Positions 2,423 through 38,381 of a stretch of 64,000 bases of DNA are shown piece by piece; the first letter of the stretch is position 1; every line of letters begins with the position of its first letter. Made by a program: the position numbers and the translations under genes. A model generated the notes under the pieces. The model was not told the origin of the DNA. It searched no databases and saw nothing but the letters and a program-made list of their open reading frames with translations. This DNA comes from an uncultured virus (IMG/VR IMGVR_UViG_3300017642_000077). Taxonomy: Duplodnaviria > Heunggongvirae > Uroviricota > Caudoviricetes. The DNA is taken from the IMG/VR virus record IMGVR_UViG_3300017642_000077; one strand, given 5' to 3'.

Positions 2423-2431
2423 GAATTAGCT

Positions 2432-2759: not shown

Positions 2760-2802
2760 GACGCCCCGGTAGCCGTATGGCCGCCGGGGCGTCTCTTTTT
2801 TT
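2760..2802 (+). terminator. Intrinsic terminator at the end of the tail operon, possibly bidirectional
   Basis: GACGCCCCGG...CCGGGGCGTC stem followed by TCTTTTTTT. Confidence 0.7.
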
Positions 2803-2812
2803 GGGATCGATG

Positions 2813-3238: not shown

Positions 3239-3270
3239 CCCCTCCGGCCAGGTCGCGGCATGATCGCGGC

Positions 3271-3612
3271 CTACTCATCCGGCACACTAATCACATTATC
3301 CTCACACCCCCACCCCACAGCGTCAGCGACTGTTATGCCCCGTCTCGTCAACCCATTGGTCTCTTGTAATCCCCACTGATAGAGATATCGCTCTGTGACC
3401 GTTCCGTCAGCGTCCGTTATGTCAACGATTTTGTGCCCTGCTTCTTCGGCTGGTTTATCTTCAGTAGGGTCTAATTGGCCTTGTAATACCCATCCATACC
3501 GCTCGTTAAGCCATGTTTGGATGTCGGACAGAACTCTGGACTTATAAGTATCAATAGCAATAAGATTTTCTACGTCTGCTTTTGTCGCAATCGATTTTGG
3601 ATACCCAATCAT
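3271..3612 (-). CDS. Phage hypothetical protein downstream of the Mtd-like gene
   Basis: AGGAG SD then ATG at 3612 (MIGYPKSIATKADVENL...). Confidence 0.7.
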   Translation of the reverse strand: MIGYPKSIATKADVENLIAIDTYKSRVLSDIQTWLNERYGWVLQGQLDPTEDKPAEEAGHKIVDITDADGTVTERYLYQWGLQETNGLTRRGITVADAVGWGCEDNVISVPDE

Positions 3613-3631
3613 ATTGACTCCTATCTTGTCA

Positions 3632-4921
3632 TTACAGCGCCACGGCCAACGGCTCCGCGACCCCGCGCGCACCGATAGCCGTATCCAGATACAGCGGACC
3701 GTAAATCCAAAGCGAACTGCGCGAGCCGCAATACGACCCACTATTCCAATAGCCGCCCGCGATCCCACGGTTGGGGGCGTAATACGACTTACCAGCCACG
3801 CCGGAATCGTTGGCGTTATAGGCATCCACCCAGGAGGCCGCTGCATAGGGGCCGCCTGCCTCGCAGAGCCATTGCCAGAGGGCGCCACAGCAGTCCTCAC
3901 AGCCACAATTACTGATCATACGTCTGCCGGCGGTGTCAGAGTGGCCTCCCGTGGTGCCAGGATCGGCGCTCCCGGAGATATTGGTGCCCTGATTGCTGCC
4001 CAAGCTGGCAGACACAAACTCATGCTGGGACAGCGGTCGTTTGCCGACCTGCCCAAACCATTGCGAGAATTTGTAATAGTGGAAGGCCGGGCTACTCCCG
4101 CCATCGGCAGTCGTGCCACCATTAACAGAGACCAGCGCCCCGCTGCTTACCGAGGCCAGATAGATATCAACCCATTTGCCGATGCCGGAAACGTACACCA
4201 TGCCCTCGGGCGAGGACACGGGGCGGTGCTTCAGGTCCCAGACGCTGGCGGGGAGGATGTCGCCGGCAACATAATCGGACAGGGAGTGGCCAGAGATTGT
4301 CCCAACAGCCAGGCACAGGCAATGAAATCCGCCCGCCTTGCGGCTTGTTGAGGCGGTATATCCTGTCGGATAGGTTGAATTTGCTGATACGACCAATTTA
4401 ATCGACCCACTATCGAGACACGCGTAGACATAAAAGTCTTTGCCCGCACGATTCGCCGCTACGGTGTAGTCGGTCGCTGTGCTGTCCCATGCAGACGAAT
4501 CTGACAGCACAAAAGTCTGTTGCTCCGAGAGCGTAAGCAGTACGCCGCCAACATCAATAGCCATCCGCGCGGGAGAGAGGAGTGTAAGCCGGTCGGCAGC
4601 GGCTGAAACCGTTTTTGCTGCCCAGGCGCTATCCCGCGAATAATGGCCGGGCATGGACGCGATCAGGGCGGCCGCTAGATCGTAGGTGGAGGCCGACCCA
4701 CTGTGCGGGTTGGCTGCTGCCTCATGCGCCTCACGGGCAGCGGCCTCGGCCGACAACTCGGTGCTTGTCGCGAGCCCAGCCCGAACATGTACTGCTGTAA
4801 CTTTTTTGGTGGTGCCGTTGGCCCCGTCTGTCACATCACTCATATCCTGCACGACAAAGATATCATTATCGGCCGGAAGTTCAGCCAACTCAGTCATTTC
4901 GGGAAGGGTTTTAAGCGCCAT
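3632..4921 (-). CDS. mtd: Major tropism determinant (Mtd)-like receptor-binding protein with C-terminal CLec/FGE-type domain
   Basis: GGFH, WVDIYL, G.EDCCG.LWQW and C-terminal GGYWNSGSYCGSRSSLW..GP......IGARGVAEP resemble Bordetella phage BPP-1 Mtd. Confidence 0.75.
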   Translation of the reverse strand: MALKTLPEMTELAELPADNDIFVVQDMSDVTDGANGTTKKVTAVHVRAGLATSTELSAEAAAREAHEAAANPHSGSASTYDLAAALIASMPGHYSRDSAWAAKTVSAAADRLTLLSPARMAIDVGGVLLTLSEQQTFVLSDSSAWDSTATDYTVAANRAGKDFYVYACLDSGSIKLVVSANSTYPTGYTASTSRKAGGFHCLCLAVGTISGHSLSDYVAGDILPASVWDLKHRPVSSPEGMVYVSGIGKWVDIYLASVSSGALVSVNGGTTADGGSSPAFHYYKFSQWFGQVGKRPLSQHEFVSASLGSNQGTNISGSADPGTTGGHSDTAGRRMISNCGCEDCCGALWQWLCEAGGPYAAASWVDAYNANDSGVAGKSYYAPNRGIAGGYWNSGSYCGSRSSLWIYGPLYLDTAIGARGVAEPLAVAL

Positions 4922-24241: not shown

Positions 24242-25168
24242 TTAGGCAGTGACAGCCGCGTCCTTGACCCCACCCAGGCGGGCGGCGGCGCGGCCGTGGT
24301 AGCAGGCGATTCCGGCGAGCCATTCAACGCGAGTGCGCATGGCCGGCTTTTCCTGCAGCTCGCCCAGGTCGCGGACATCCATCACGCCGTTCTGGATTCC
24401 GCCAAGCATGCCGTCGCCAAAGCTGACGCAGTAGATGCTCGATGCGGTGGCCGTAGAACCGGTGTAGCCAACCTCGGTGAACGGCAGAATGTCGTCCCCA
24501 GCGTTGTCGTAGTCGGCAATCAAAATGGGCAGGTCGGCGTACATGGCGATCTTGCGGCCGAAGGCGCCCAACTCGTACGTCAGGAACCCGCCGATGGACG
24601 TGGACCGGGAAGCAGCGGACAGGCGCCGACGCATGGTCTTGTTCATGATGAGGTGCGTGGGGCTATCCACGCGGTCGATCAGCTCATCGAGCTTGGCCAG
24701 GGACAACGCGTCCCCGCCGTCAGTGGTCCCGGCGTAGAAAAGCTGGTTTCCGACCAGCCGCGCCTGGAGACCGTCAAAACCGCGTGGGTCGCTGACGCTG
24801 TCACCCTTCAAAAACTGCTTGGCCCAAGCCAGGGCAAGGGATTTGACTTTCATGCCTTCCTGGGTGGACCGCTGGGCCATGCCCATGGTGCGCAGGATGA
24901 ACATGTCAACGTCCAGGTCCCCGCCCGCGATGACGAGGGGTTCCGTCTGCGGGTTGAGAACGCCGGTAGACTCGGTGTAGGCTTCGTTCACGCCACGGAA
25001 GCCGACGCCGGGCAGGGTGTCTTCACGGTTGTAACGCAGCGCGTTTCCGGTGATGTCCTGGAACGGCAGCGCCGCCATGATGTCCGAAGCGGCTGCATAC
25101 ATTTCGATGACAGCCGACTGGACGGGGTTATCGGACCGCTTGGCGGCCTCAACGAGAGTCAGGGCCAT
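24242..25168 (-). CDS. Major capsid protein (HK97 fold)
   Basis: MALTLVEAAK, LPGVGFRGVNE, FDGL..R, LDELID.V, TSIY.VSFG. Confidence 0.9.
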   Translation of the reverse strand: MALTLVEAAKRSDNPVQSAVIEMYAAASDIMAALPFQDITGNALRYNREDTLPGVGFRGVNEAYTESTGVLNPQTEPLVIAGGDLDVDMFILRTMGMAQRSTQEGMKVKSLALAWAKQFLKGDSVSDPRGFDGLQARLVGNQLFYAGTTDGGDALSLAKLDELIDRVDSPTHLIMNKTMRRRLSAASRSTSIGGFLTYELGAFGRKIAMYADLPILIADYDNAGDDILPFTEVGYTGSTATASSIYCVSFGDGMLGGIQNGVMDVRDLGELQEKPAMRTRVEWLAGIACYHGRAAARLGGVKDAAVTA

Positions 25169-25180
25169 GGTAGCTCCTTG

Positions 25181-25933
25181 TTAAACGCCCCGCGCCTGAT
25201 TCAATCGCTCGACAGGCGACAGGTCGTGCCAGTTTTGATTCGTGGCTCCGGCCCGCCCTCCGGTGGCCCCGCCCCCGGGTTGGAACTTTGTGTCCACGAG
25301 GTTCTTGTTCTCGGGCAGTCCCAAAAACGCCTTGACCGCCTCGGCAGCGGGAAGGTTTTTTTCGACACGCTTGTCACCGTCCAAGACGGTGACCGTGGTT
25401 TTTGGGACGTACTGCCCGGTAGGCCTGCCGTCGTCGCCGATGACGGGCTCAAGCACCGTGCGCCCCGCCAGAAGCCCATGGATTTGGGCGGCGGAAAACG
25501 CACCGGCTTCCTGTGCGGCCCGGGTAAGCACGGCCTCGATTGTCGAGGTTGTGTAAAGCTGTTGGTAGTGGTCAGCCTGGGCCTTGATCTTGGCGGTTTC
25601 TGCGGCCGCCTCTTCCCGAGCCTGCTTGATCTTTTTGGCGGCCAGCTCGTCACTGGAAAGCACCTGCTTTTCCAGATCGTCGACTTTCCCCTGGAGGTCG
25701 GCACGCTGGGCATCCGTCAACTTGTGGTTTTCCAGCAATTCATTGTACTGCCCGAGCAGCTTCTTTTTTTCGCTAAGCAGCTCTTCATTCTTGGACTTCA
25801 GCCCTTTCACTTCCGACTCGGACACAAGGCCGCCGTTTACGTCGAGCACATACGCTCCGTCCTTTTGGACGTAAGCCGAGCGCAGCACCTCGGGCACCGC
25901 GTCCAGCGACTGCAACTTGAATTCAAGGCCCAT
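25181..25933 (-). CDS. Capsid scaffolding protein
   Basis: YVLDV.G, GLKSKNEELL.EKK coiled coil, C-terminal GGGA.GG, directly upstream of the MCP. Confidence 0.82.
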   Translation of the reverse strand: MGLEFKLQSLDAVPEVLRSAYVQKDGAYVLDVNGGLVSESEVKGLKSKNEELLSEKKKLLGQYNELLENHKLTDAQRADLQGKVDDLEKQVLSSDELAAKKIKQAREEAAAETAKIKAQADHYQQLYTTSTIEAVLTRAAQEAGAFSAAQIHGLLAGRTVLEPVIGDDGRPTGQYVPKTTVTVLDGDKRVEKNLPAAEAVKAFLGLPENKNLVDTKFQPGGGATGGRAGATNQNWHDLSPVERLNQARGV

Positions 25934-26151: not shown

Positions 26152-26391
26152 ATGGCAAATATGCGAGACACGGTCGAAGAGTTGCGCGGCATATTGCCGC
26201 CCGTCTTTGCGGGCCAAAGCCTCGACGACATGACGGGCGGGGCCATCAACTGGCGAACGATCCTCAACGCCAGGGCGCGGAAAGAGGTCCCGCCGTCGTG
26301 CTTCATGAGGAGCGGGAGAAAGGTGCTGGTGAAGCGCGATCCGTTCTTGGAGTGGTGGAAAGGGACGCTGCGGGAAGAGGGGGGCGAGTGA
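26152..26391 (+). CDS. Small excisionase/AlpA-like DNA-binding protein
   Basis: 79 aa, WRTILN...P...RSGRKVLV.RD.FLEWW winged-HTH-like pattern. Confidence 0.6.
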   Translation: MANMRDTVEELRGILPPVFAGQSLDDMTGGAINWRTILNARARKEVPPSCFMRSGRKVLVKRDPFLEWWKGTLREEGGE

Positions 26392-26924
26392 TGGCGCATA
26401 CCGACGCCTGCAAGTACCAAGTCTGCCAGCTCGTCGAACGGCTGGTGAAAAATGGCCAATCGGTGAATGAGGCCAGCAAGCACGTGCAGGTTGAAAGCGA
26501 TGGCATCCCGGCCAAGACGATCCAACGGTGGTGGAGACAAATTCAGGACGAAGCAAACGGGTTGCTCAATAATGAGCAACAGCCCGAAAACCCAGCAACC
26601 ATGCCGGTTCAGGGTGGTTGCACTGGTTGCAAGCTTGATCCGGTCAGGGTTGTTTCCAGGATCGACAAGATGGTCGAGCAGGGGAAGTCAATCCGTGAGG
26701 CATCCGAGGTGATTGCCAAAGAAACAGGAAGGCGCCCGTCTGCGATTCGAAGTGCCTACGTCCGCGAGCGTGACAAGCTGGCCCCGGAAGACGAGCCGTC
26801 CGAGGCTTGGCAATTCGTCGAAATTGCCATCTCACAACTGAGCAGGATCAGAAAAGACGACCCCGGGCGGAAAGAGGCCTTCCAAAAACTTAAGAACTGG
26901 ATTGCGGTCCAGGAGGGAAAATAG
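26391..26924 (+). CDS. Hypothetical protein with two HTH-like repeats
   Basis: G.SVNEAS..V...TIQRWW and G.SIREAS.VIA...IRSAY.R, coupled start (TGATG). Confidence 0.6.
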   Translation: MAHTDACKYQVCQLVERLVKNGQSVNEASKHVQVESDGIPAKTIQRWWRQIQDEANGLLNNEQQPENPATMPVQGGCTGCKLDPVRVVSRIDKMVEQGKSIREASEVIAKETGRRPSAIRSAYVRERDKLAPEDEPSEAWQFVEIAISQLSRIRKDDPGRKEAFQKLKNWIAVQEGK

Positions 26925-26925
26925 C

Positions 26926-27705
26926 ATGTCCAAGGTCCTTGAGTCTCGAAACTATGGGATGTTCTCACTCCACAGCTTCAACCGTGACGTTGAAAAAATC
27001 GCCAAGCTCGAAAAAAGTATGCGGCTGCATGGCTGGATTTCCGCATACCCTATGCACGTCATCCGCGAAAACGGGCACCTGAAGATCAAGGGCGGACATC
27101 ATCGGTTCGAGGTCGCCAGGAAACTCGGCATCCCGGTCAAGTATGTCGTTTGCGACGACAAGGCGACCATTCACGAGCTGGAAGACGCAACCACGCCGTG
27201 GGATTGGCCGGACTACTTGGAGTCCCACGCCAGGACTGGGAACGTAAACTATCTCAAGATCAAAAAATACCAGGGCGAAACAGGAATACCCCTCACGTGC
27301 ATCGTTTCCATGTTTGGTGGCTACACGGCCGGATCAGGCATTTACGCTGGTCCGTTCAAAAGCGGGGCTTTTAAGATCAAAGACACCGATCACCCCTCCA
27401 TCGTGGCTGACCTCGTGGCCGTCGCAAGGTCGGCAGGATTCAAGGGCTCGACCATCCGCAATTTCGTCATCGCCCTGTCAAAGGTGGCTAAGACCGCCGA
27501 AATCGACCTCCCCCGCCTCAAGGCCAAGATGAAGGCGCATCCCTACCTTCTCCAGAAACAAACATCCGTGGATGGCTACCTTGCCATGCTCGAAGAGGTC
27601 TATAACCGGCAACGAGCCGACAAGGTTCCCCTGGCTTTTATGGCCAACGCGGCGGCCAGGGCTCGCAACATCATCCCGCCCAAAGGACACAATCAAGCCG
27701 CCTAA
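26926..27705 (+). CDS. ParB/Srx N-terminal domain protein
   Basis: NRDV..I.KL.KSM...GW...PM.V...IKGGHHRFEVA.KLGIPV.Y, SD GGAGG. Confidence 0.7.
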   Translation: MSKVLESRNYGMFSLHSFNRDVEKIAKLEKSMRLHGWISAYPMHVIRENGHLKIKGGHHRFEVARKLGIPVKYVVCDDKATIHELEDATTPWDWPDYLESHARTGNVNYLKIKKYQGETGIPLTCIVSMFGGYTAGSGIYAGPFKSGAFKIKDTDHPSIVADLVAVARSAGFKGSTIRNFVIALSKVAKTAEIDLPRLKAKMKAHPYLLQKQTSVDGYLAMLEEVYNRQRADKVPLAFMANAAARARNIIPPKGHNQAA

Positions 27706-27728
27706 CCATCGCCATATCACGCATATGC

Positions 27729-27753
27729 AAGCCGCCTTTCGGGGCGGCTTTTC
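27729..27753 (+). terminator. Intrinsic terminator
   Basis: AAGCCGCC-TTTCGG-GGCGGCTTTT. Confidence 0.7.
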
Positions 27754-27783
27754 ATTTCTCTCGGCCGAGCATAAACTGACCCC

Positions 27784-28035
27784 ATGAAATTCGGCCCCCG
27801 CGTCCCCTCCCTTCGCAAGCGCATAGCCGCCCGCACGTCTCCGGCCCGGTTCCTGCGGCATTCGCTCGGGTTCAAGGCCCCGCGTGGTTGGGGCTGGCTG
27901 ACGAACCCGAAGCGTGCGCTCTACAACCGGATTTACAACCGGACGACGTTCAGCATTCTCCCGAGCGGTTGCTTGATGCCGATCTTGACAATATTTTTTA
28001 TAGGCATATTTGCAGCTATCAGATTAATATTCTAA
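27784..28035 (+). CDS. Basic phage hypothetical protein with C-terminal TM segment
   Basis: MKFG.R.PSL.KRIAARTS...GWGWL.NPKRALYN.IY.RTT. Confidence 0.7.
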   Translation: MKFGPRVPSLRKRIAARTSPARFLRHSLGFKAPRGWGWLTNPKRALYNRIYNRTTFSILPSGCLMPILTIFFIGIFAAIRLIF

Positions 28036-28056
28036 CAGCGCAAATGGGTATGAAAA

Positions 28057-28278
28057 ATGAAAGTGCAATTTGTCGTTGAAGCGTCTTGGCTATGCAAACA
28101 ATGCGGATTGAAACAAAGCGATCCGGAGTTAATCGTCGAAATCGGAGGGAAAGTAACTCCATTTTGCAAAAAATGCACAAGTAAAGATATGATTTTTATG
28201 GGTGATGAAAAAACAAAAAAGCTATGGGAGCTCTACGCCTATAGAAACTTGTCATCATCCGACCGATTTGACTTTTAA
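28057..28278 (+). CDS. Small Zn-finger hypothetical protein
   Basis: CKQC...CKKC. Confidence 0.5.
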   Translation: MKVQFVVEASWLCKQCGLKQSDPELIVEIGGKVTPFCKKCTSKDMIFMGDEKTKKLWELYAYRNLSSSDRFDF

Positions 28279-28399
28279 TCCGCCTCCCCCCCCCTCCATT
28301 TCTCGCCCCGCCCGCCAGCGGGGCTTTTTTGTGCCCAAGTCTTGCCGGGGCGACATGAAAACTGGTATCGGGGCGGGAAACGTCGGGAGGCGGGATGAC

Positions 28400-29332
28400 A
28401 TGAAAAAATTTTTTACGCTTATGATACAGACAAGCTTATTCTGTATAGTGCTATTGCTTGTTATCCCCTTTTTCTCTTATGTTGACGCAGGCGAAAATAA
28501 AAATACTGGCAGAGAAGAATATTTTAAAAATAAAAAATGCTGTATAAATATTGACGATATATCAAAAACTATCAGCGCATTATCAACAGCTGGGGTCTTG
28601 CCGGGCAAAGGAGAGTTTGAGACCTCTGCTATGTATAATGAGAAGGTAAAATTTTTTAAAGAAAAAGAGCATGAAATTATAAATAAATATTACTTATTCA
28701 AAATAGTTCAAGACGCTATGTGGTCAAAATACAATGCTGACAACAATAATCTTGAGTTTGGCATAAAGGACTCGGCCAATTGCAGCCCGTCAATGCATAA
28801 CCAACAAAATGAAAATATAGTTTTTGTGATTGATATAGAAAAAGAAAAATCAGACCGTGAATATGTTGGAGAAAATTCATTTGGGGTTAAGCGTACGGTT
28901 ACAGAGCACACCCGGTCTACTAAATCAATTTATTTGTCAAATTTTAGTTTGCTGCGCAAATCCGTCCGTATTGGAGAGTTTGGTCATGTTTATTTAAATA
29001 TTTTTTCTAAAACCTATAACGCTGAAGATGCTAAAGACATCAAAAAACGAATAGAAATGTTTGTGCTTGTGAGGCCAGACAATATAGAGCGGGGAGATAT
29101 GGTTTGTCCTGTCTCTGTGTATGGGAAGAAAAAGCAGTGTTATATATGGGAGTATTCTTATTCCACTAAACCAACAATTGACCTACCAATTGCAGATACG
29201 GGGCGTTATTATCAACTCAACGCGAGCCTTGCGGCTGTCGTGTCTGTAGACCGCGAAACTAATGAAATAATAAATTGTACGTTTTACGACAAGCATCAAC
29301 CTAGTATCAGTAGACATTTTTTAACAAACTGA
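28400..29332 (+). CDS. Exported/membrane-anchored hypothetical protein (AT-rich)
   Basis: MKK plus hydrophobic signal, KGEFETSAMYNEK (EFET motif), SD GGAGG. Confidence 0.65.
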   Translation: MKKFFTLMIQTSLFCIVLLLVIPFFSYVDAGENKNTGREEYFKNKKCCINIDDISKTISALSTAGVLPGKGEFETSAMYNEKVKFFKEKEHEIINKYYLFKIVQDAMWSKYNADNNNLEFGIKDSANCSPSMHNQQNENIVFVIDIEKEKSDREYVGENSFGVKRTVTEHTRSTKSIYLSNFSLLRKSVRIGEFGHVYLNIFSKTYNAEDAKDIKKRIEMFVLVRPDNIERGDMVCPVSVYGKKKQCYIWEYSYSTKPTIDLPIADTGRYYQLNASLAAVVSVDRETNEIINCTFYDKHQPSISRHFLTN

Positions 29333-29348
29333 CTTAAAGGAATGGGAT

Positions 29349-30146
29349 ATGCAAGACCCTGATTACCAAGCGGTAGCTATGGCAATACGTGATGCGATCA
29401 ATGACTCTCCGAAAAAATCTCGTCGCATCCTTCTGAAGACGCTTCTCAAGATGTACGGCTTCAAGACCAGACAAAAGCATTGGCTTGAGGCTATTCAACA
29501 GAGCCTTGACGGCGCTGGTATTATTAGCGCTCCCTCCGTTTCCGAGGCGGATCGTGACGATTGGGTGGTCCTTTCTGTCACGACTCCGCACATCCCCGTG
29601 GACGACTTCACGGCCGTCCCAGAAGGAGAAGATGGGGAGCAGGCCCCAACAGGTGACGACCCGTGGATTTCCACCATCGCATCCAAGACTTTCCGCAGCG
29701 AGAGGGAGGTTGAAATACGTTTTGTCCTTCCGCTCTTGGAGCGCCTCGGGTACGACGAAGACGACCGGTCAGATGGATACCCGGTCGAACAAATTGTCGG
29801 TGTCAGAAAATCTAAAACAGAAGCAGATTTTGTTTTATTTGACGGACTTAACCGGACAAAGAGCAACGCATTGCTGGTCGTTGAAGCAAAAAACGTGGGG
29901 AAAACCCTCGTTGATCACATCGGACAAGCGAAAAGCTACGCCATGTTCTTGGGAACTCCATATTTTATGGTAACAAATGGAGACGATATTAGAGTTTTTC
30001 TTTACAGAAGTCCCATTGAGTCTGACGTTGAAGTGTTCAAATCGAACAGAAATGATTTAGTTTCCACATTCAAGGCCCTTTACAATATCGTCAGCAAGAG
30101 AGCTGTCGTCGAATACAAAAAGAAGAAAGCTGCGATGTTAGGATGA
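29349..30146 (+). CDS. Stand-alone HsdR-N-type (PD-(D/E)xK) endonuclease domain protein
   Basis: SE.EVE.RFV.PLL..LGY, ADFVLF, VVEAK, QAKSYA, VTNG. No helicase domain. Confidence 0.8.
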   Translation: MQDPDYQAVAMAIRDAINDSPKKSRRILLKTLLKMYGFKTRQKHWLEAIQQSLDGAGIISAPSVSEADRDDWVVLSVTTPHIPVDDFTAVPEGEDGEQAPTGDDPWISTIASKTFRSEREVEIRFVLPLLERLGYDEDDRSDGYPVEQIVGVRKSKTEADFVLFDGLNRTKSNALLVVEAKNVGKTLVDHIGQAKSYAMFLGTPYFMVTNGDDIRVFLYRSPIESDVEVFKSNRNDLVSTFKALYNIVSKRAVVEYKKKKAAMLG

Positions 30147-30261
30147 TGCGGCGTTGTGATGCTCCACGCCGGCAAGTAAGCAATTTCCGTGGCCATGGCT
30201 AGCAGCCAGGTTTTTTCTAGCCCCCTGAGTTATCATGGGGCCTTTTTTTCTTGACTCTACT

Positions 30262-30627
30262 TTATATCACTTCGGTCTCTTTAGACCTGTCTCTATAAAT
30301 AAATTTTTTCCCGCATTTTGGGCACTCGCTAGGCATGTATGTAATGTCAATTCCGCATTCTGGACAAAATATTTTATGTGGAGCCATGGGCAATTCGCGA
30401 CCACAGTGCTTACAAACAATAGCCTCTTGCTTCACATATTCCGCACAAGATGGGCATCTTTTATGCCGAACTGGCGCATGCCATGTCGGCATAAAGCCCA
30501 CAATAAAAATAGCAAGCGGCCCTAAAAGCATCCCGAGGAACAGCCAATCGAACCAGCTTCTATTTTTGGCGTTGGCAATGACTGAAGCGCCTATGCCACA
30601 GCATATCCAGGCGAAGATAAAGGCCAT
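30262..30627 (-). CDS. Membrane protein with double zinc ribbon
   Basis: Two TM segments (IANAKNRS...LGMLLGPL), then CPSCAE..K.EAIVCKHCG and CPECG...CPKCG. Confidence 0.75.
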   Translation of the reverse strand: MAFIFAWICCGIGASVIANAKNRSWFDWLFLGMLLGPLAIFIVGFMPTWHAPVRHKRCPSCAEYVKQEAIVCKHCGRELPMAPHKIFCPECGIDITYMPSECPKCGKKFIYRDRSKETEVI

Positions 30628-30731
30628 CTTTTCGTTCTCCCTTTCTCCAAACCGATACCGCCCGCCACATGGGCAGGGCAAGCCTGCGGGCGGTGTTTTT
30701 CTTGAAATGGGGATATTTTTTACGAGACGGA

Positions 30732-30760
30732 TTGACAAACATGACTAACATGTTTAACTC
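30732..30760 (+). promoter_or_regulatory. Sigma70-type promoter overlapped by inverted repeat AAACATG-N5-CATGTTT
   Basis: TTGACA at 30732, palindrome at 30737-30755, AGGAG SD before 30781. Confidence 0.6.
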
Positions 30761-30780
30761 TTGAATTAGGAGACGGGCAC

Positions 30781-30930
30781 ATGGAAACAACCAATATCGG
30801 GATCAGAAATTTTCCGGTCGAACTTCGCAAGCAGGCGAAGATAGCGGCCCTGAAGGAGGGAATAACGCTGCAGGAGTGGTTTATCGAAGCTGTCAAGGAG
30901 AAATTGGAGCGTTCCAAAGAAACCCAGTAA
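30781..30930 (+). CDS. Arc/Mnt-like ribbon-helix-helix repressor (49 aa, not in the ORF track)
   Basis: METTNIGIRNFPVELRKQAKIAALKEGITLQEWFIEAVKEKLERSKETQ. Confidence 0.75.
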   Translation: METTNIGIRNFPVELRKQAKIAALKEGITLQEWFIEAVKEKLERSKETQ

Positions 30931-31005
30931 CAAAAGCGGCCCCGGCCGGGTGTACCACCACCCAACCAGGGCCTAGCCCCAGCACACCTTACCAGGAGGT
31001 GCACC

Positions 31006-31983
31006 ATGGCTCAGGCTATTTTATCCGAACCCGTTTCGTCGGGCAACGGTCTTCCGGGCGCAATGCCCATCCTGTCCCTCGTCAACGGGCATCCCAGGGC
31101 TTCTTCCCTCGCCGTGGCCGAGCATTTCAAGAAGCGACATGACAACGTGATGAGGGCGATAACCCAAACCTGCCATCATCTCCCAAGCAATTTCTGTGCC
31201 CTCAATTTTGAGGAGACATCCTCGGCAGTCCCTGGGCCGAAGGGCGGCACTCGCCAAGAGCGCGCCTACCTCATGACCCGCGATGGCTTCACGCTGATCG
31301 TGATGGGCTTCACCGGCAAAGAGGCGATGGCCTGGAAGCTGCGGTACATCGAGGCCTTCAACGCCATGGAAGCCGAGCTTGCCCGGAAGTTCCCGACCGC
31401 AGGAACCCTTACCGCCTCCCAGCAGCAGGAAATCAAGGAGTTGGTCCAGGCCAAGGCGTCGGCTTACCCGGACGCGGTGAAGCGCAAGGTGTTCTCGCAA
31501 ATCTGGATGCGCCTACAGCGCAAGTTCAAGGTGCCGCGCTACGAGGAATTACCCGTCGCCCTGTTCGGCGAGGCCCGGGACTACGTGATCGCCATGCAGA
31601 TTCGGAGCGTGGCGGCGCCGGCCCTGGAAGGAGCCGAACCCGCCAAGTCTCTCCCACCTGTCCGCCGCCGTAACACGCTCGACGACTACAAGGCCATGTA
31701 CCGCGAGCTTCCCGACTCGCCGCAACACTGGCTGCGCCTGATCACTGAGACGTTTAACGCGACGGAAGCGTTTGGCAAAAAGCTGGATGCAATCAAGGCC
31801 GAGGCGACGAAGCCCTTCCGGTCCGGCCGGACCTCCGACGTGTCCAGCTACTTCGATGCGTCCATGTCGCCTGTCTTCGACCTGTTCTCCGTCGCCGACG
31901 AGCAGCTCAGGCTGACCTACCGCTGCGTTTATAACGCGCTGGAAGGATGTCGGAATACCTGGATGTTGCTCAATAAGGGGTAG
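31006..31983 (+). CDS. Rha-family / ORF6C antirepressor-like protein
   Basis: SSLAVAEHF.KRHDNV.R.I, Y.MTRDGFTL.VMGFTG.EA..WKL.YIEAFN.ME, then an ORF6C-like L...FKVPRY.EL. Confidence 0.88.
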   Translation: MAQAILSEPVSSGNGLPGAMPILSLVNGHPRASSLAVAEHFKKRHDNVMRAITQTCHHLPSNFCALNFEETSSAVPGPKGGTRQERAYLMTRDGFTLIVMGFTGKEAMAWKLRYIEAFNAMEAELARKFPTAGTLTASQQQEIKELVQAKASAYPDAVKRKVFSQIWMRLQRKFKVPRYEELPVALFGEARDYVIAMQIRSVAAPALEGAEPAKSLPPVRRRNTLDDYKAMYRELPDSPQHWLRLITETFNATEAFGKKLDAIKAEATKPFRSGRTSDVSSYFDASMSPVFDLFSVADEQLRLTYRCVYNALEGCRNTWMLLNKG

Positions 31984-32117
31984 GGCCATGAGCGATCCCA
32001 AGCGCATTGACGCGGACGTGGCCCTGGCCCTTGCGATTTTAGAACTCAACAAAGCGTTCGCCCGTGAACGGGATGGGAAACGACAAGGGCCGGCGCCCGA
32101 ACCGGTGAAGGCGTAAA

Positions 32118-32152: not shown

Positions 32153-32398
32153 TCAACCCCCGCAAACCTCCCGCCACACCGGGTCCATCTGGATCGATTT
32201 GAATCGCAACCCGCATGCCGGGCACCGATGATATCTCTCTCGGATGTCGTCCTTCCAAGGCTCGCGATGGTAGGCCTTCACAGGCAATTCACCGCACCTC
32301 GGACACCGGGCGCCATACCGAGGCGAATACGATACGCCATAGGCTTCCTGGGTTTGTATCGCCTGGGCATTGGCCTGCGTCAATGATTCAATTTCCAT
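32153..32398 (-). CDS. Ogr/Delta-like zinc-finger protein
   Basis: CPRCG...RYHRCPACG.RFKS. Confidence 0.6.
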   Translation of the reverse strand: MEIESLTQANAQAIQTQEAYGVSYSPRYGARCPRCGELPVKAYHREPWKDDIRERYHRCPACGLRFKSIQMDPVWREVCGG

Positions 32399-34478
32399 GC
32401 ACACGCTTTAGTTCCTCCAGGGTCAACAGGTCCCCTTTGCTATCCACCAGATCGCCGAATTTTACCTTTCCAGACTTCAATAGTTCCAGCCGGCCAGGCC
32501 CCACAGCATTGAGTTTGAACGAATCGCTTTGTTTCTCGAACCAGCTCCCGTAGTCGCCCTGGTGAAAACCGTATTCCTCGATCTCACGCGCTCCGCCAAC
32601 CCCTATGGTTTTGTCAGGGCGCATGGTGTAGGGCCGGGCAGCGTCCTGCAGTTCGTCAAGCGGTATGCCGAGGTCGCGCCAGGAAATCGTCTCTGGTGTT
32701 GTCACGCAGCGACAATTACTGGACAGAAGCCCGCCTACATAATAAAGTGATGATGCAGTTTGGAGGTCATAAACATGCCCAGTAAAGTATCTGACTCTTG
32801 TGAAAGAGACGTATGCAGACGTTATACTTCCGGAGAATCTTCTGGAGAAATTGCGAAGGACCACGGAGTTTCTATTTCCTGCATCGCGTCCATTCTCAAA
32901 AGGAACGGTATTCGTCCCGATGGAAGGAAGCCAAAGACAATTCCCAAACGAAGGTTGAACATCCCTCTTGAAGAGGTGACTTCCTTGTATTTGTCCGGGA
33001 TCTCTGAAAACGAAATTGCTAAGCGCTTTGGCGTTAGCCGGGCCGCAATTCGCCCCCGCCTCTTGTCCGCCGGTGTACCCATTCGCGACAGCGCCCAAGC
33101 TAACCGCCTGATGATGGCTGGCCGAAGCTCCGAGGAAAACTTCCGCAACACTCAGGCCGCGCATGAAGCCGCCCGAGGCAAACCTCAACCAGAAGAGTGG
33201 GCCCAAAAAGTTGCTCTCGGCCGGGAGCGGAACAAGAGGCACATCGGGCCGCAGGAGGTCGAGCTTGCGGCCATACTTACGAGCAAAGGCTTCACGGTCA
33301 CCCCTCAAAAGGCTGTCGGGCGCTATAATATCGATATAGCCATTAGCGAATTCCCCATCGCCGTGGAGGTGTTCGGTGGCATGTGGCACGCGTATGGTCC
33401 CCATGCCCGGCGTTTTCGCAAACGCTTCGACTACCTTTTGGATTGCGGATGGATTCCTGTCATCGTGTGGATCAGCAAAGATTTTCCTTTGGGCCTCGGG
33501 GCTGTCAAATATATCTGTTCCCTCGCGGAGCGCCTGCGCAGCGGTAAATCCGTCCCTCGTCAGGAACAGGTGATTCGGGGTGACGGCAAACCGACGTCCA
33601 TCGGAAAGGCCAATATCGACTACCGGGCCGCTGTAGGGGGCGACAAAAGCGGCGATTTTGTTCGGGGCAAAGACGGGCGTTTCACCCGTGAGGCAGCGAG
33701 GGTGTAGCGGACAATTCGGCCGACTCGTATCGTCCAAGGCCCACGTCCGACCATCGAGCGCCGAACAGCGGAGGCATGTTCCGTGCCCTGTATTTTTATA
33801 CCCAGGCTCCAACGTCGCCCGCCATTTTACGCGCTTCACCACGTCAGCATTCTGTTTATAGACTGCTTCCATGGCCGCAACATTGGCCGACTGCACATAG
33901 GTTCTGGCCAGTGTAGTTGCTTGTTCCTTGCTGAGCATGTCGAACCCCTGGGAGAGGCGCTTGACCAACTTCGGATAGCCTTCGCCCTGAAGCATGCCGA
34001 CGTTCAGCTCTTCTTTGATTCCGTCCTTGACGGTGGTGTCGAAGGCGGCATCGACCCACGCCGAAAGCGTCTTTCCACCCAGGGGCGTGTCCACGAACAT
34101 CTGGCGAATCTGCTCGGCCGAGAGGGATACGAAGCTCACATTTACGGCCGCTCCGCCCACACTCAGGATGTCCGAGTGCTCGGCGAGGGAATGTTGGCCG
34201 GCGAACCCGGCCGCCTCGCCAATCTGGTCGGCCAGGGTCAGGCGAACGCCCTGGGTCAACTCATCGAGGGCATAAAGCACCTCTTCTGCCCGGGAGGCCG
34301 ACCAATCCGTGCGGAGAAGCTGCGCCTCGAACTTGAGTTGGATTTCTCGCCGGGCCGTTGCCAAGGATCCCTGTATGCGCTTGAGGACCTCGTTGTCGTA
34401 GGCGTCGAGCTTGTAGCGCCAGGCAATTTGACGACCCAACCAATAGATGTTCAGGAGGTCTTGCGGTGCGGTTCCCAT
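32388..34478 (-). CDS. Head morphogenesis / minor capsid protein (Mu gpF/SPP1 gp7 family) containing an intein
   Basis: ARTYVQSAN, W.ATL, C..C..LDG and PLHPR-[intein]-CRC, located after the portal. Confidence 0.88.
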   Translation of the reverse strand: MGTAPQDLLNIYWLGRQIAWRYKLDAYDNEVLKRIQGSLATARREIQLKFEAQLLRTDWSASRAEEVLYALDELTQGVRLTLADQIGEAAGFAGQHSLAEHSDILSVGGAAVNVSFVSLSAEQIRQMFVDTPLGGKTLSAWVDAAFDTTVKDGIKEELNVGMLQGEGYPKLVKRLSQGFDMLSKEQATTLARTYVQSANVAAMEAVYKQNADVVKRVKWRATLEPGYKNTGHGTCLRCSALDGRTWALDDTSRPNCPLHPRCLTGETPVFAPNKIAAFVAPYSGPVVDIGLSDGRRFAVTPNHLFLTRDGFTAAQALREGTDIFDSPEAQRKIFADPHDDRNPSAIQKVVEAFAKTPGMGTIRVPHATEHLHGDGEFANGYIDIIAPDSLLRGDREAFARKYGRKLDLLRPDVPLVPLPAESNFLGPLFWLRFASGGFMRGLSVAEVFLGASASHHQAVSLGAVANGYTGGQEAGANCGPANAKALSNFVFRDPGQIQGSHLFKRDVQPSFGNCLWLPSIGTNTVPFENGRDAGNRNSVVLRNFSRRFSGSITSAYVSFTRVRYFTGHVYDLQTASSLYYVGGLLSSNCRCVTTPETISWRDLGIPLDELQDAARPYTMRPDKTIGVGGAREIEEYGFHQGDYGSWFEKQSDSFKLNAVGPGRLELLKSGKVKFGDLVDSKGDLLTLEELKRVHGN
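32715..33695 (-). mobile_element. Intein (327 aa) in the head-morphogenesis protein
   Basis: Block A CLTGETPV, block B VTPNHLFLT, block F GHVYDLQT, block G LLSSN/C. Splicing restores HPRCRC. Confidence 0.88.
32775..33707 (+). CDS. HTH + Vsr/DUF559-like endonuclease encoded antisense within the intein (putative homing endonuclease)
   Basis: GGAGG SD at 32762, ATG at 32775, two HTH repeats (YTSGES..EIAKDHGVS, YLSGISENEIAKRFGVS), E......L..KG......Q..VGRY.IDIA......AVEV.GG.WH....R..YL...GW..V.VW. Confidence 0.8.
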   Translation: MPSKVSDSCERDVCRRYTSGESSGEIAKDHGVSISCIASILKRNGIRPDGRKPKTIPKRRLNIPLEEVTSLYLSGISENEIAKRFGVSRAAIRPRLLSAGVPIRDSAQANRLMMAGRSSEENFRNTQAAHEAARGKPQPEEWAQKVALGRERNKRHIGPQEVELAAILTSKGFTVTPQKAVGRYNIDIAISEFPIAVEVFGGMWHAYGPHARRFRKRFDYLLDCGWIPVIVWISKDFPLGLGAVKYICSLAERLRSGKSVPRQEQVIRGDGKPTSIGKANIDYRAAVGGDKSGDFVRGKDGRFTREAARV

Positions 34479-34753
34479 TCGGCTACACCCCCGCCATGGA
34501 GAAAAAACCGAGATGCCCGTTTACACCCGAGGAACTCGAAGACAGTGACGCGGGGATGCTTGCCCGATATCGCAAGCGCATCCGCGAACGCCATCCCGAG
34601 ACCATGGAAAACATCGCACGCGGGAAGGCCTTGTTTATGGCTACCGTCATTCCGCCCGACGTATGGGCAACCGATCCAAGCATAACGGGTAAACAGGTCG
34701 AGGGGCCAACCATGGCTACGCCGCCTGCCCCAGACCCTGACCTGCCGGAGTAG
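34466..34753 (+). CDS. Hypothetical protein antisense to the late operon, between portal and head-morphogenesis genes
   Basis: AGGAGG 7 nt before GTG 34466 (alternative ATG 34496), charged protein-like sequence. Confidence 0.4.
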   Translation: MRFPFGYTPAMEKKPRCPFTPEELEDSDAGMLARYRKRIRERHPETMENIARGKALFMATVIPPDVWATDPSITGKQVEGPTMATPPAPDPDLPE

Positions 34754-36305
34754 TCCCGCCGGCTGCAAGCATCCTGTCCGCCAGGCTGGCCGCATCCAAC
34801 GACGGGCCTGTCTGTTGGCGCGCATCGGCTTCAATCTTGGCCTCCTCTTCGGCATGGTCGAAATCATCCGCTAATACGCCCCTGCGTTGCAATTCCCGCC
34901 ACCACGTCCGCTTCGAAAGCCCCCCGTTTTTCCACGTGTCCTCCAAGACCGTCATCGCGGTGTCGTCCCCAATGATCGCCGGGCGGAATTCGGTATTGAT
35001 CTCTATGGATGGGGCCTTGATGCTACCACCCATGAACACCGTGGCGAACACGAAGGCCTGTTCCAAGGCATCTTTGAGTTCCATTGCCCACCCCTTGAGC
35101 GTGGAGTCGTTTTCCCCTGAATTGATCGCCTTTTCCGTAGCCGTCACATCACCTGTGCGCGGCATAAGAAGCTGCAATCCAAAAAGGGCCATTTGGCGTT
35201 GCAAGTCTTCAAGCTCTTCTCGGGACGCGGTAACAGAAGAAGGGTCAACGCCGAACGACTTGATATCACCACCAGTTGGGACCCTGGTCACAACACCAGG
35301 GCCAACAGGGATAGGTTGTTCCATGCCGTCAGGGCCAATAGTCGCGTCGGCGCCAATCAACGCCGTTCCTGGGGACCGGACCCACACCATCATCTGGTTG
35401 TGCTCGGCCTGCTTCTGCCAATGCTCGATGTTTTTTTGCGCAAGCGACTCCAGTGCCGGGCAGCACGTCACCTCTCCAAGCGGCTTCCCTGGGCGGAAGA
35501 ACACTCCCGGGATTTCATCTCCAGGAAGATTCCCCTCGTCAAAGAGGGACCACACATCTTTGTCGTTGTCAGCCCGACGCCACACCTCAAAACGACCGGG
35601 CCGCAACACCCGAACCTGTTCTCTGATTACATCTCCCGCGTCCCACTCTCCCATCTCTTTGTAGGTTTCCAGGAGACGCAGTAAGGTCAGTTTTTTTGTC
35701 CCGCCTCGCAACTCAAAACGCCACCCAAGCACGTTTTCGGCCCGGACATGGATAAACCTTGGCCGCAGCCCAATCGCCGCAGCGTTTCCGGCATGGAGCG
35801 GTTCCCATTGTTCTTGCCCGAACTCGTCCATCCCCGCCAAAAATTCTCGCCCGCCACCCTCGCCACGTCGGCTTTCGACATGCGGGGAATCGATCAGAAT
35901 CAACCCAAACCCGTCGTTGATGCTGGCATGGAAGAACCGTTTTGCCCAAACGGTCAGGTTGTTCCCCTCGCCGTCTGTGTTCTCAACAATCTCTGCAAAC
36001 GGCCCCAGGGCGGCATCTTGCTCTGTTGCGCCATCGCCTACCACGCGAAGGTCCTTGGCGAAGACCTGGCCACCCAGATAAGCAAGCGTGCGCTCATAGA
36101 CGTTGAGCAGCGTTGCACCTTTAACTCTGGCGGCCCATTTCTTTTCCGGTTCTCCGGGGAATTGCCGGAGATACCGTGACCCGGCGGCCCGCATAGCGTC
36201 CTGACCGCCCATAAGGTCTTTGACCATTTGGAGCTTTGGGCGGTAGGCCACGATGTCGGCGTTCGGCGTGGCGACGGTGATAAATTTGCTGTTGAGCACA
36301 GACAT
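34716..36305 (-). CDS. Portal protein (DUF4055-like)
   Basis: MGG..AMRAAG..YL.Q.P.E, D.EGNNL, LA..NI.HWQ, TATE, follows terL. Confidence 0.88.
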   Translation of the reverse strand: MSVLNSKFITVATPNADIVAYRPKLQMVKDLMGGQDAMRAAGSRYLRQFPGEPEKKWAARVKGATLLNVYERTLAYLGGQVFAKDLRVVGDGATEQDAALGPFAEIVENTDGEGNNLTVWAKRFFHASINDGFGLILIDSPHVESRRGEGGGREFLAGMDEFGQEQWEPLHAGNAAAIGLRPRFIHVRAENVLGWRFELRGGTKKLTLLRLLETYKEMGEWDAGDVIREQVRVLRPGRFEVWRRADNDKDVWSLFDEGNLPGDEIPGVFFRPGKPLGEVTCCPALESLAQKNIEHWQKQAEHNQMMVWVRSPGTALIGADATIGPDGMEQPIPVGPGVVTRVPTGGDIKSFGVDPSSVTASREELEDLQRQMALFGLQLLMPRTGDVTATEKAINSGENDSTLKGWAMELKDALEQAFVFATVFMGGSIKAPSIEINTEFRPAIIGDDTAMTVLEDTWKNGGLSKRTWWRELQRRGVLADDFDHAEEEAKIEADARQQTGPSLDAASLADRMLAAGGTTPAGQGLGQAA

Positions 36306-36308
36306 GGC

Positions 36309-37625
36309 CTACCATCCTGTTTGCTGTTGAAGGGAAAAGACGCGCTTAATCAGTGGGTATTCCTGATGAATGAAATACCCGGCAGCATCAACGGGGTGAT
36401 CATGCCCCGTTGTCTTGTCAGGCTCACCATTTGCGGACCACGCCTGTTGTTCCAAGGCATCGGCATAGGTTGGGCAGGTCGCTTGGTTCACAAGATAGCG
36501 GCGTTCTCCGGCTGCATTCAGGAACATGGCGTTCATGGAGTTCACGCGATCCTTAACCGGAGGGTTCGCGGCAGGAGCGGATATGGTAAACCCAGCCTGC
36601 TTAAGCAGCGCGATATCAGTCTCAGACGCGTTTTGCGATTTCCTGGAGCCCCCTGAAGCATCCGGGTAGACTCTGATTTGCCGCGAAGGCTGGTACATTT
36701 TCCCGTCGTAACGCCAGAATCGTTCCTTAATGCGACGAATCATATCCGGCGTGTCATAGGCGCCGACGATCTCATCAACCGCTCTGGGCAAGCCGTCGCG
36801 CTTCACGTGGACAATGGCCGCCATCTTGCCGACATTGAAATCCATGCCGACGAAAATGGCCTCGCCATCTTGAACAGTATCATTGCAGGTGCTCAGCTTT
36901 CTGTCATAAGCGACATAGACAGTACCTGTCTGAAGATTGACGAATTTCCCATTGATGTAGGCATCAATCAATTGCGGGGGGTACGACTGGAGAAGCGACG
37001 GGATGTAGTCGTCAGGAAGATTTGCGGCGTTATCGTATGTTGAAGCTTGGATAATCCCATATAAATTTTGAAGCGATTTGTTTTCTCGGATTTGTTTTAC
37101 AAATCTCGTATAGATAAAACGGAAACCTTCTGGCGTTGTTGTGACGTCAATCCCATTAAGCAACCCGTCACGCTTTACGCGCATCCGAGCAAGTATTTTT
37201 CTCCAAGCAACACCAGCCTTTTCCATTGAAAGAACGTCTATTTCATCAACAAGAGCTTTCCCTATTTTGAACCCGACAATCGAAGCCGGATCTTCCATTG
37301 ACCGGCACTTAATTGTCCCCATGAATGTACGACCACGATACACGTCTACCTCGTGATCGCCTTGCCGAACCTTTGTAGTCAACCCCCAGTCTGCCAAAGA
37401 CTCTTCGACCGTGGGGTAAAACGTGTCCTTAATGTCTCGGTATGTCGGGGCAAAATATCCTGCGTCTACACGCGGCCACTCGTAAAAGTGCTTTCCAAGC
37501 GATCCGGCGCCAACCCACGTTTTCCCTCCTCCAAATCCCGTAACAAAGGCCTTGAACTTGTGGGGCATTGCTATAAAACGCGATTGTGGAACATTCATGG
37601 TCGGTCGGATGACGAGGTCGCTCAT
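36309..37625 (-). CDS. terL: Terminase large subunit
   Basis: GFGGGKT, LVDEID, TTTPEGF, GMDFN, YPDASG, DH.VDA.GY. Confidence 0.95.
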   Translation of the reverse strand: MSDLVIRPTMNVPQSRFIAMPHKFKAFVTGFGGGKTWVGAGSLGKHFYEWPRVDAGYFAPTYRDIKDTFYPTVEESLADWGLTTKVRQGDHEVDVYRGRTFMGTIKCRSMEDPASIVGFKIGKALVDEIDVLSMEKAGVAWRKILARMRVKRDGLLNGIDVTTTPEGFRFIYTRFVKQIRENKSLQNLYGIIQASTYDNAANLPDDYIPSLLQSYPPQLIDAYINGKFVNLQTGTVYVAYDRKLSTCNDTVQDGEAIFVGMDFNVGKMAAIVHVKRDGLPRAVDEIVGAYDTPDMIRRIKERFWRYDGKMYQPSRQIRVYPDASGGSRKSQNASETDIALLKQAGFTISAPAANPPVKDRVNSMNAMFLNAAGERRYLVNQATCPTYADALEQQAWSANGEPDKTTGHDHPVDAAGYFIHQEYPLIKRVFSLQQQTGW

Positions 37626-38182
37626 TCCTTGCGCCCATCCATAACCGCGATTTCAATCTTGACTGGCATCGGGCAATCGTCGCCGCCGGGGTTCTCTCGG
37701 AACAGGCCAAGGTGATTCCCAAGGTGCTGGAGAGCCCTCACCTTATCGTGCAGCTTAAACTTGGTTTTTTTTACCGTCTCGGCGTCGTCTCCACGGCCTT
37801 CAGTGTAGGTATCCTGGGTGATTTCGGAGACGGCGGCGAGTTTGACGTCATCGGCGTTAGTAAAGTCGAGGATAGGAACGCCAGTCCCTTGAATCTTGAC
37901 GAAGTCGGCGATGTTTGCAAACCCGACCTTAGCAAGTTCTTGGAGCACACGGTCTGCGGTGATCTCAGTGCGCTTGGCCCGTTCTGCCATCTCTTTCTTA
38001 ATCGCTTCCTGAACTGAACTTTTCTGAAGCAGATTGGCTCCGATCCGATAGGCGGTTTTTGGGCTGTACTTTGCTCGAATTGCGGCCTGAGTCGCATTCA
38101 GATCGATCATGTATTCCTTAACGAAAAGGCCTTGCTTCGGAGAAAGTACGCGTCTCTTTGGGTTTTTCTTAGGGGAGCTCAT
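37622..38182 (-). CDS. terS: Terminase small subunit
   Basis: KQ.LFV.EY.IDLNATQAAIRA.YS.KTA, KLHDK..AL..LG.HLG.F. Confidence 0.93.
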   Translation of the reverse strand: MSSPKKNPKRRVLSPKQGLFVKEYMIDLNATQAAIRAKYSPKTAYRIGANLLQKSSVQEAIKKEMAERAKRTEITADRVLQELAKVGFANIADFVKIQGTGVPILDFTNADDVKLAAVSEITQDTYTEGRGDDAETVKKTKFKLHDKVRALQHLGNHLGLFRENPGGDDCPMPVKIEIAVMDGRKE

Positions 38183-38381
38183 CCACCACCACCTTCCGCA
38201 TCGCCTTCGTCTCCTCACTCCCACACCACGGGCATCTCCCGAGTCCGATACCTCGCAGCATCTCAAACACTGTCACCATAAACACGGTCCCGCACTCCCG
38301 GCATTGCCGCTGCATCCTGGACGGATGCCAGCATGGTACGCGGTCTGTCCCTGGGTCGAGATACTCGGTCTCGCGGATCAT
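38169..38381 (-). CDS. Small Zn-ribbon hypothetical protein
   Basis: CRECG...CPWCG, overlaps both neighbours. Confidence 0.55.
   Translation of the reverse strand: MIRETEYLDPGTDRVPCWHPSRMQRQCRECGTVFMVTVFEMLRGIGLGRCPWCGSEETKAMRKVVVDELP

Follow-up and report, generated by a model that had tools for sequence, protein, structure and literature searches.

How can a protein-splicing element and the nuclease presumed to mobilize it occupy the same piece of DNA, one on each strand? This question is raised by a locus in a DNA of 64,000 nucleotides (nt) from an uncultured virus of the Caudoviricetes (IMG/VR record IMGVR_UViG_3300017642_000077; this whole stretch is called the window below), where an intein-bearing gene for a MuF-like head-morphogenesis protein on the minus strand is faced on the plus strand by an open reading frame (ORF) of 310 amino acids (aa). 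On the basis of the results described here, it is quite probable that the locus combines a class-1 intein at the HPx/CRC motif of MuF (a slash marks a splice junction) with a separate antisense gene for a Vsr/EDxHD-like mobility nuclease, laid codon on codon over the intein. This view is carried by the folds of both products, the codon register shared by the two frames, selection on the plus frame, and the presence or absence of the intein among near-identical phages. The minus-strand features, in window coordinates, are as follows (pLDDT, predicted local distance difference test):

32388-34478, minus: MuF-like head-morphogenesis precursor gene, intein included (696 aa; Pfam Phage_Mu_F, phrog_241)
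33696-34478, minus: N-extein, ending ...CPLHPR (261 aa; from the sequence)
32715-33695, minus: class-1 intein between HPR and CRC (327 aa, or codons)
33312-33695, minus: N-terminal splicing subdomain of the intein, about aa 1-128 (from the model and conservation)
32871-33311, minus: intein linker, about aa 129-275, an antisense read-through of the nuclease gene (low pLDDT, low identity)
32715-32843, minus: C-terminal splicing subdomain of the intein, about aa 285-327, with blocks F and G (from the model and the junction motif)
32388-32714, minus: C-extein, starting CRC, and stop codon (108 aa; from the sequence)

The minus ORF reached the gathering score of Phage_Mu_F (34 bits; Pfam cut-off 29.6), matched the head-morphogenesis family phrog_241 with an E-value of 1.3e-44 and lies after the portal gene in a late operon; by this match and this place it was assigned to MuF. 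Its N-extein aligned with the intein-less MuF of Stenotrophomonas phage AXL_1 as far as PAHPNC, and the C-terminal part of its C-extein aligned with the same protein and with phrog_14819. In AXL_1 and in Salmonella phage MA12, two relatives with an empty site, the host protein is uninterrupted at the intein position and HPNCR is continuous. The window intein lies in frame within this conserved host motif and carries the sequence marks of class 1, namely C1 (C-LTGET), block B (T39-P-N-H42), block F (G-H307-VYDLQT) and a terminal S-S-N327 followed by a +1 Cys. Both SN and HN endings were found among relatives of this intein (window 32715-32723).

A HINT fold was obtained for the intein in an AlphaFold2 (AF2) model built from a 60-row alignment (mean pLDDT 66.2). 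The model was confident over residues 10-133 (mostly >=90) and 290-335 (80-98), and residues 134-280 were mostly below 50; the linker (aa 129-275) is probably unstructured, judging from this model. No Pfam family besides Intein_splicing was found at E<=0.1 in the intein frame, and LAGLIDADG and HNH gave no match there. The possibility of a novel in-frame endonuclease domain within the intein was considered and rejected, given the absence of a Pfam match, the weak conservation of the minus frame and the pLDDT below 50 of the centre.

On the other strand, the following features of the homing-endonuclease (HEN) gene were delineated:

32775-33707, plus: antisense HEN gene (310 aa and stop; from Pfam, AF2 and homologues)
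32793-33068, plus: two helix-turn-helix (HTH) DNA-binding modules, about aa 7-43 and 65-98
33240-33542, plus: Vsr/EDxHD-like nuclease core, about aa 156-256, with invariant K179, Y184, N185, D187 and E198
33543-33704, plus: C-terminal tail, about aa 257-310, antisense of intein blocks A-B (from pLDDT and the codon-position pattern)

The ORF runs from an ATG at 32775 to a TAG at 33707, the latter 12 nt into the N-extein. It shares codon boundaries with the intein frame (register 0), so that reverse complementation of any plus codon gives exactly one minus codon, and about 920 nt are read on both strands by the HEN and MuF precursor frames. Read on the minus strand, the ATG is the His codon CAT of block F and the TAG the Leu codon in PLHPR. 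Matches to 13 Pfam families were found in the HEN ORF at E<=0.1; HTH_7 (30.6 bits, cut-off 23.8, residues 50-90) and CENP-B_N (25 bits, cut-off 21.2, residues 12-43) exceeded their cut-offs. The AF2 model (63-row alignment) had a mean pLDDT of 87.5 and contained two HTH modules of three helices each as well as a helical connector and an alpha/beta core; pLDDT fell below 50 over residues 279-310, and the C-terminal tail is probably a passenger. The top Foldseek ranks included Vsr, I-Bth0305I and NGO0050, and the comparison of structures with VIA-align gave the following values:

1cw0_A, Vsr with DNA: 11.1 / 6.9 / 129
3hrl, NGO0050: 10.6 / 1.6 / 89
1vsr, Vsr: 10.5 / 2.3 / 111
3r3p_A, I-Bth0305I: 9.8 / 2.8 / 95 of 97

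Thus, the C-terminal domain has a Vsr-type nuclease fold in the model, and the HTH modules matched the DNA-binding domains of GcrA, Tc3 transposase and resolvase in VIA-align. A profile of the HEN family searched against PDB matched 3hrl (E 4.5e-6), the tandem-HTH protein 2lvs (E 1.5e-8) and, marginally, 3r3p (I-Bth0305I; E 1.8e-3); a phmmer search of PDB with the single HEN protein returned a weak HTH match and nothing else. A first-pass annotation, made from the letters alone, had placed a 327-aa intein in a minus-strand head gene, splitting HPRCRC, and a plus-strand ORF of 310 aa almost coextensive with it and ending 12 nt into the extein; the coordinates, the intein motifs and the Phage_Mu_F and phrog_241 matches agree with both statements. 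The two HTH repeats that it read in the plus ORF, and its remark that the centre of the intein lacks LAGLIDADG and HNH, are likewise borne out by the searches and the model.

Is the plus ORF a gene at all? It might be a non-coding shadow, that is, an accidental open frame whose conservation mirrors selection on the intein. In register 0 only TTA, CTA and TCA codons close the opposite frame, and they make up 0.5% of control codons here; 1.5 such codons would be expected in the HEN ORF and none was seen, an outcome with a probability of about 0.21. Long antisense ORFs are also common in the window: the adjacent plus-strand ORFs 33783-34685 (300 aa) and 34837-35664 (275 aa) face the MuF N-extein and the portal gene, and the length of an ORF is a poor guide in this genome. 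Two frames open at once are nothing remarkable in the window taken alone; therefore the case for the HEN gene rests on domains, fold and comparative data, and not on length. On these grounds the shadow fares poorly: at E<=0.1 the two control ORFs had no Pfam family, the HTH matches above cut-off lie in the plus frame with none in the minus frame there, and the plus protein folds as a Vsr-like protein at high confidence whereas the intein centre does not. Across 65 loci, six closing codons were observed in the HEN ORFs vs about 376 expected from local codon usage, and all six sit outside the overlap, where the plus segment extends beyond the end of the minus ORF.

To characterize the distribution of this arrangement, homologues were collected from several sources. 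A tblastn search with the HEN protein matched 123 phage records (Salmonella 62, Pseudomonas 15, Gordonia 11, Klebsiella 8, and others that include Vibrio, Aggregatibacter and Idiomarinaceae phages). In all four records inspected (Gordonia phage Malisha, Idiomarinaceae phage 1N2-2, Aaphi23 and Salmonella phage BPS11Q3), the HEN match was antisense to an annotated MuF or head gene and the HEN itself was unannotated; the window HEN is thus directly homologous to Gordonia phage MuF loci of this layout. A profile scan of IMG/VR gave 120 relatives, of which 80 were kept, and a search of genome contigs with the single HEN protein found no relative. In 83 of 84 loci the HEN homologue lay wholly within a long minus ORF, in register 0 each time. 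After clustering at 85% identity, with one locus identical to the window (L005) and the single non-nested one (L067) set aside, 66 non-redundant minus ORFs remained. A MuF-type Pfam family was present in 52 of them (39 Phage_Mu_F, 7 VG15 and 6 Phage_min_cap2) and Intein_splicing at E<=1e-3 in 53, 11 of these at the gathering score; seven were portal-MuF fusions and three had no family. The junctions were alike throughout (HPx/C...[SH]N/C[RQ]C), and HVY[DN]LQT of block F was kept. The hosts of the nested loci range from Actinobacteria to Proteobacteria. Since its intein is contiguous, lacks a structured endonuclease domain in frame and is overlain by a Vsr-like nuclease ORF read from the other strand, the window locus belongs with the inteins that carry an antisense VSR-like HEN.

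Several variants of the host protein were seen among these loci. An N-terminal portal domain is fused to the intein-bearing MuF in L010, L021, L046, L055, L059, L066 and L072, an ADP-ribosyltransferase-like tail follows it in L012, and a weak CdiA_C-like tail in L049. The 978-aa minus ORF of L039 (2351-5284) matches Intein_splicing at residues 656-960 and also Hint_2/Vint at 203-279, which points to another intein in this MuF gene, whether complete or a remnant.

A conserved protein in register 0 casts a conserved antisense shadow, and therefore similarity alone cannot decide which strand is selected; the last 70 HEN codons in fact behave in this way. Conservation was therefore measured for each frame in a codon alignment of 67 non-redundant sequences, with the following identities:

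HEN residues 21-240: position 1, 0.33-0.63; position 3, 0.29-0.52; plus-frame aa, 0.21-0.57; minus-frame aa, 0.12-0.42
HEN residues 241-310: position 1 below position 3; plus-frame aa, 0.12-0.35; minus-frame aa, 0.24-0.50

This pattern indicates that the plus frame is selected over HEN residues 21-240, where it is better conserved than the minus frame and its third position is freest, and that the intein frame is selected over HEN residues 241-310, opposite intein residues 1-67. In the stretch of the intein linker (32871-33311), identity was 0.12-0.23 in the minus frame vs 0.21-0.41 in the plus frame. At intein aa 1-60, conservation is mainly that of the minus frame, with isolated conserved positions on to H111-G-D-G114; the latter lie opposite HEN P194-I-A-V197, adjoining the invariant E198, and the constraints on the two proteins are thus interleaved. 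With selection on the intein frame over HEN 241-310, the conserved-looking VIRGDG is the antisense of intein block B (FAVTPNH). Within the close group L080-L084, substitutions in the core fell mainly on plus position 3 and those in the tail on plus position 1. It should be noted that this comparison involves four sequences and is not independent evidence; the pair L043/L056 was left unused, as sequence outside the nuclease was included.

The signals from which the HEN would be expressed were examined next to the intein codons in which they are embedded:

32762-32766, plus: Shine-Dalgarno GGAGG, 8 nt ahead of the ATG, antisense to the Asp-Leu-Gln codons of block F
32720-32748, plus: weak sigma-70-like promoter match, uncertain (TGGACA-17-TAAAGT, 9/12)
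33773-33797, plus: terminator-like hairpin with T-run, 66 nt past the HEN stop, uncertain

A pattern search found block F in 54 of the 67 sequences and missed it in the other 13. Its His position was CAT in 44 and CAC in six (antisense ATG or GTG), and Pro in the remaining four. CAT thus accounted for 44 of 50 His codons vs 39% of same-gene control codons (binomial P 8e-13), and CTC for 41 of 50 Leu codons of block F vs 20% in controls (binomial P 8e-21). A shadow does not account for synonymous intein codons that are biased to give ATG and GGAG, nor for the one relative outside an intein (L067), whose plus gene is intact and whose minus frame is riddled with stops. Taken together, the codon-position pattern largely refutes a non-coding plus ORF, which we regard as extremely unlikely. 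At the comparative level, the first-pass proposal of an intein on one strand and a separate nuclease on the other is upheld by the nesting, the plus-frame selection, the Vsr-like fold and the embedded ribosome site and ATG. The check that it proposed, whether the antisense ORF of homologues stays open and under purifying selection, also came out in its favour, with 83 of 84 nested in register 0 and plus-frame conservation over residues 21-240. On the other hand, RGKDGRF, which it read as a C-terminal motif, had to be abandoned as a nuclease motif: it mirrors intein residues 5-11 in antisense, its plus-frame identity is low (0.07-0.28), and it is disordered in the model.

Evidence for movement came from cultured phages. 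The BPS11Q3 MuF gene matched 386 phage records, 58 of which carry the long allele (one place covering >=80% of the query); most of the other rows shown covered about 52-56% of the query in two pieces with a span of about 1,030 nt. Salmonella phage MA12 has a MuF of 347 aa (...AHPNCRSTTAPV) and BPS11Q3 one of 619 aa, and the two are 94-95% identical on both sides of a 272-aa insert at HPN/C; therefore the element is present or absent among sister phages. Intein and nuclease were gained or lost together in these Jerseyviruses.

The non-nested relative, L067:2348-3827, deserves a separate description. Its HEN gene is intact, with 328 codons (2348-3334, plus), and runs toward a convergent short MuF gene (3321-3827, minus), which lacks an intein and ends HPNCRCCLTFKVD. 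Opposite this HEN, the former intein frame has 17 stops in 328 codons at similar G+C and retains remnants such as GHRGDG. The locus could represent either a decayed intein or the stage of a free-standing nuclease.

This persistence of a HEN gene outside an intein and beside an intein-less MuF raises the possibility that the plus protein is a selfish nuclease of the free-standing type, or a DNA-binding regulator, for which the intein is a safe harbour and which acts elsewhere or, via antisense transcription, on MuF and the late genes. The resemblance of the HTH modules to DNA-binding domains of transposase, resolvase and GcrA, and the convergent orientation of the HEN gene toward the late operon, agree with such a role. 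However, the same intein at the same MuF site accompanies the HEN in 83 of 84 loci from Actinobacteria to Proteobacteria, as expected if the HEN targets that site, and the joint gain or loss in Jerseyviruses is also at odds with a mere harbour. Hence, we consider this explanation very unlikely.

A different reading accepts the family and takes the window copy as a vertically inherited, immobile relic, perhaps inactive or kept as an intein linker. The exteins of the window MuF have only distant relatives in cultured phages (<30% identity), among which no close empty allele, and no near-identical pair of empty and filled alleles, was seen; recent mobility of the window copy is therefore not shown. 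The searchable text of a preprint (10.1101/2025.01.02.630785) notes that vertical inheritance seems to apply to most VSR-like cases. In some homologues the core is degenerate: the HEN copy of Aaphi23 (L003:1501-2400) lacks GGxWH after the invariant Glu and reads VAVELTAFTGRYR with its frame open, and to judge from its residues it may be catalytically degenerate. The window copy, in contrast, retains all invariant or near-invariant residues of the family (K179, Y184, N185, D187, E198, G201, G202, H205, R217 and G225), the GGAGG-N8-ATG start and a frame of 310 codons with no stop. We therefore think it rather unlikely that it is a relic, and prefer the antisense mobility nuclease.

Besides the chance openness of the frame and the distant exteins, some further results weigh against that preferred reading. 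The Intein_splicing match of the window scored 17.2 bits vs a cut-off of 35.8, because a long insert splits the profile match, and its S-S-N end has a Ser in place of the common penultimate His. REase_MTES_1575 scored 30.5 bits in the HEN (residues 162-234), under its cut-off of 38.2; the Vsr/DUF559-like core suggested at first stands as a fold in the model and falls short as a family match, and profile searches of the two frames, proposed in the same annotation, gave HTH matches above and nuclease and Intein_splicing matches below cut-off. Foldseek with the whole HEN model had no match at E<=0.001, as the multi-domain model dilutes the score. In the family, the invariant positions include D187 and E198, H205 is conserved in most members, and no residue could be assigned to the last acidic position of EDxHD. 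Promoter-like sites (3 in the region vs 1.2 expected from shuffles) and terminator-like sites (5 vs 2.8 expected) were not significantly enriched, and a search of sequencing runs for the locus gave no RNA run and three metagenome runs with 5-7% of the sampled words.

Based on these results, the following mechanism would connect the two strands. Translation of the MuF precursor would pass through the nuclease gene in antisense, which would yield a floppy linker, and the HINT halves would dock and splice; splicing is suggested by an essential late gene that stays open in 83 of 84 loci. The central part of the intein would simply follow from what the antisense spells, as a disordered linker at the place where inteins normally tolerate an endonuclease insert. 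Each of the closing codons TTA, CTA and TCA has synonymous alternatives, and therefore the nuclease is free to evolve as a protein. The HEN would be translated from a plus-strand message of its own via the embedded GGAGG and ATG, with read-through from the convergent Rha-like gene as an alternative source of this message. It would bind the empty HPxCRC allele via its two HTH modules and cut it with the Vsr-type core, and repair of the cut allele would copy the whole two-strand unit, a process of homing to which the family and its presence/absence pattern point. 

The layout had at first been thought to lack a description; antisense VSR-like homing endonucleases in full actinobacteriophage inteins are, however, reported by Gosselin, Arsenault and Gogarten (bioRxiv 10.1101/2025.01.02.630785), whose searchable text names minor capsid proteins among the hosts and an HHpred match to 3R3P. 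Their system belongs to actinobacteriophages, whereas the window copy is not from one and has relatives in Salmonella, Pseudomonas, Klebsiella, Vibrio, Aggregatibacter and Idiomarinaceae phages. Codon register, an embedded ribosome site and ATG, and selection per frame are subjects on which we saw no analysis in the preprint as far as its text could be searched; what is new here lies in such details, namely the spread beyond actinophages, a codon register that is universal, the division of selection between the frames and the start signals in intein codons. The preprint also cites antisense LAGLIDADG inteins of 1998 and 2002 (Synechocystis DnaX and a Chloroflexus SpoVR-like protein; Gorbalenya 1998, Gogarten 2002), which, as cited there, likewise have an endonuclease ORF on the opposite strand, with LAGLIDADG in cellular host genes in contrast to the Vsr-like type of the window.

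In the fractured genes described in passages of Dassa et al. 2009 (PMC2677866), split inteins have a free-standing Vsr-like endonuclease gene between their halves. These resemble our case in the broad nuclease family, in being mainly phage inteins and in a separate gene with its own signals at the usual insertion point, and differ in that the intein is broken into two trans-splicing genes, whereas the window intein is open and part of a single precursor; an opposite-strand layout is not mentioned in those passages. I-Bth0305I is the prototype of EDxHD homing endonucleases, whose composite motif comprises a Mg-binding Asp, a general-base His and a neighbouring Asp; as described in passages of Taylor et al. 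2011 (PMC3239194), it is encoded on the sense strand in a group I intron of recA and has NUMOD motifs, and the window HEN is 15-16% identical to it. Canonical mobile inteins such as PI-SceI and PI-PfuI share with the window the HINT fold, an insertion at the same structural position and presumed homing. Their nuclease and splicing domains form one polypeptide with LAGLIDADG or HNH in frame, whereas the window has two proteins on two strands.

The genes surrounding the locus are arranged as follows:

37622-38266, minus: small terminase, late operon
36309-37625, minus: large terminase, late operon
34716-36305, minus: portal, directly upstream of MuF, late operon
25181-25933, minus: scaffold, late operon
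24242-25168, minus: major head protein, late operon
26902-27705, plus: ParB-like gene, cassette
28202-29332, plus: cassette gene without PHROG match
29349-30146, plus: cassette gene with one weak PHROG match of unknown function
31006-31983, plus: Rha/antirepressor-like gene, cassette

The plus-strand cassette (window 26300-32000) interrupts the minus-strand head-gene operon between MuF and scaffold and points toward the HEN gene. In addition, the 3' end of MuF shares 17 nt with a minus-strand ORF of 83 aa (32153-32404), which contains two CxxC pairs and has weak zinc-ribbon and Ogr/Delta-like matches, all under cut-off.

The layout as such was already described in the 2025 preprint, and the window copy adds breadth and no new principle. 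It is possible, and we put this forward tentatively with some doubt, that intein and nuclease belong inseparably together as a two-strand unit of ancient date, widespread in tailed phages, and not a rare accident of actinobacteriophages. In such a unit the start signals of the nuclease may be hard-wired into synonymous sites of block F, as the codon bias suggests, and about 130 codons may encode both the nuclease core and, on the opposite strand, the structured end of the N-terminal subdomain of the intein. The antisense placement would also provide the HEN with a message independent of the late operon and thus, as the first-pass annotation proposed, of late-gene expression; its action might then precede head assembly or be separate from it. 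The family is also a source of compact nucleases, HTH plus Vsr-type, that would target a conserved head gene of phages, and genome annotation misses such nuclease genes. The locus bears on the view of intein origins as 'splicing first, endonuclease later' and on the origin of split inteins. It is a natural case of long antisense dual coding, in which a selfish nuclease can ride within a protein-splicing element without belonging to its polypeptide.

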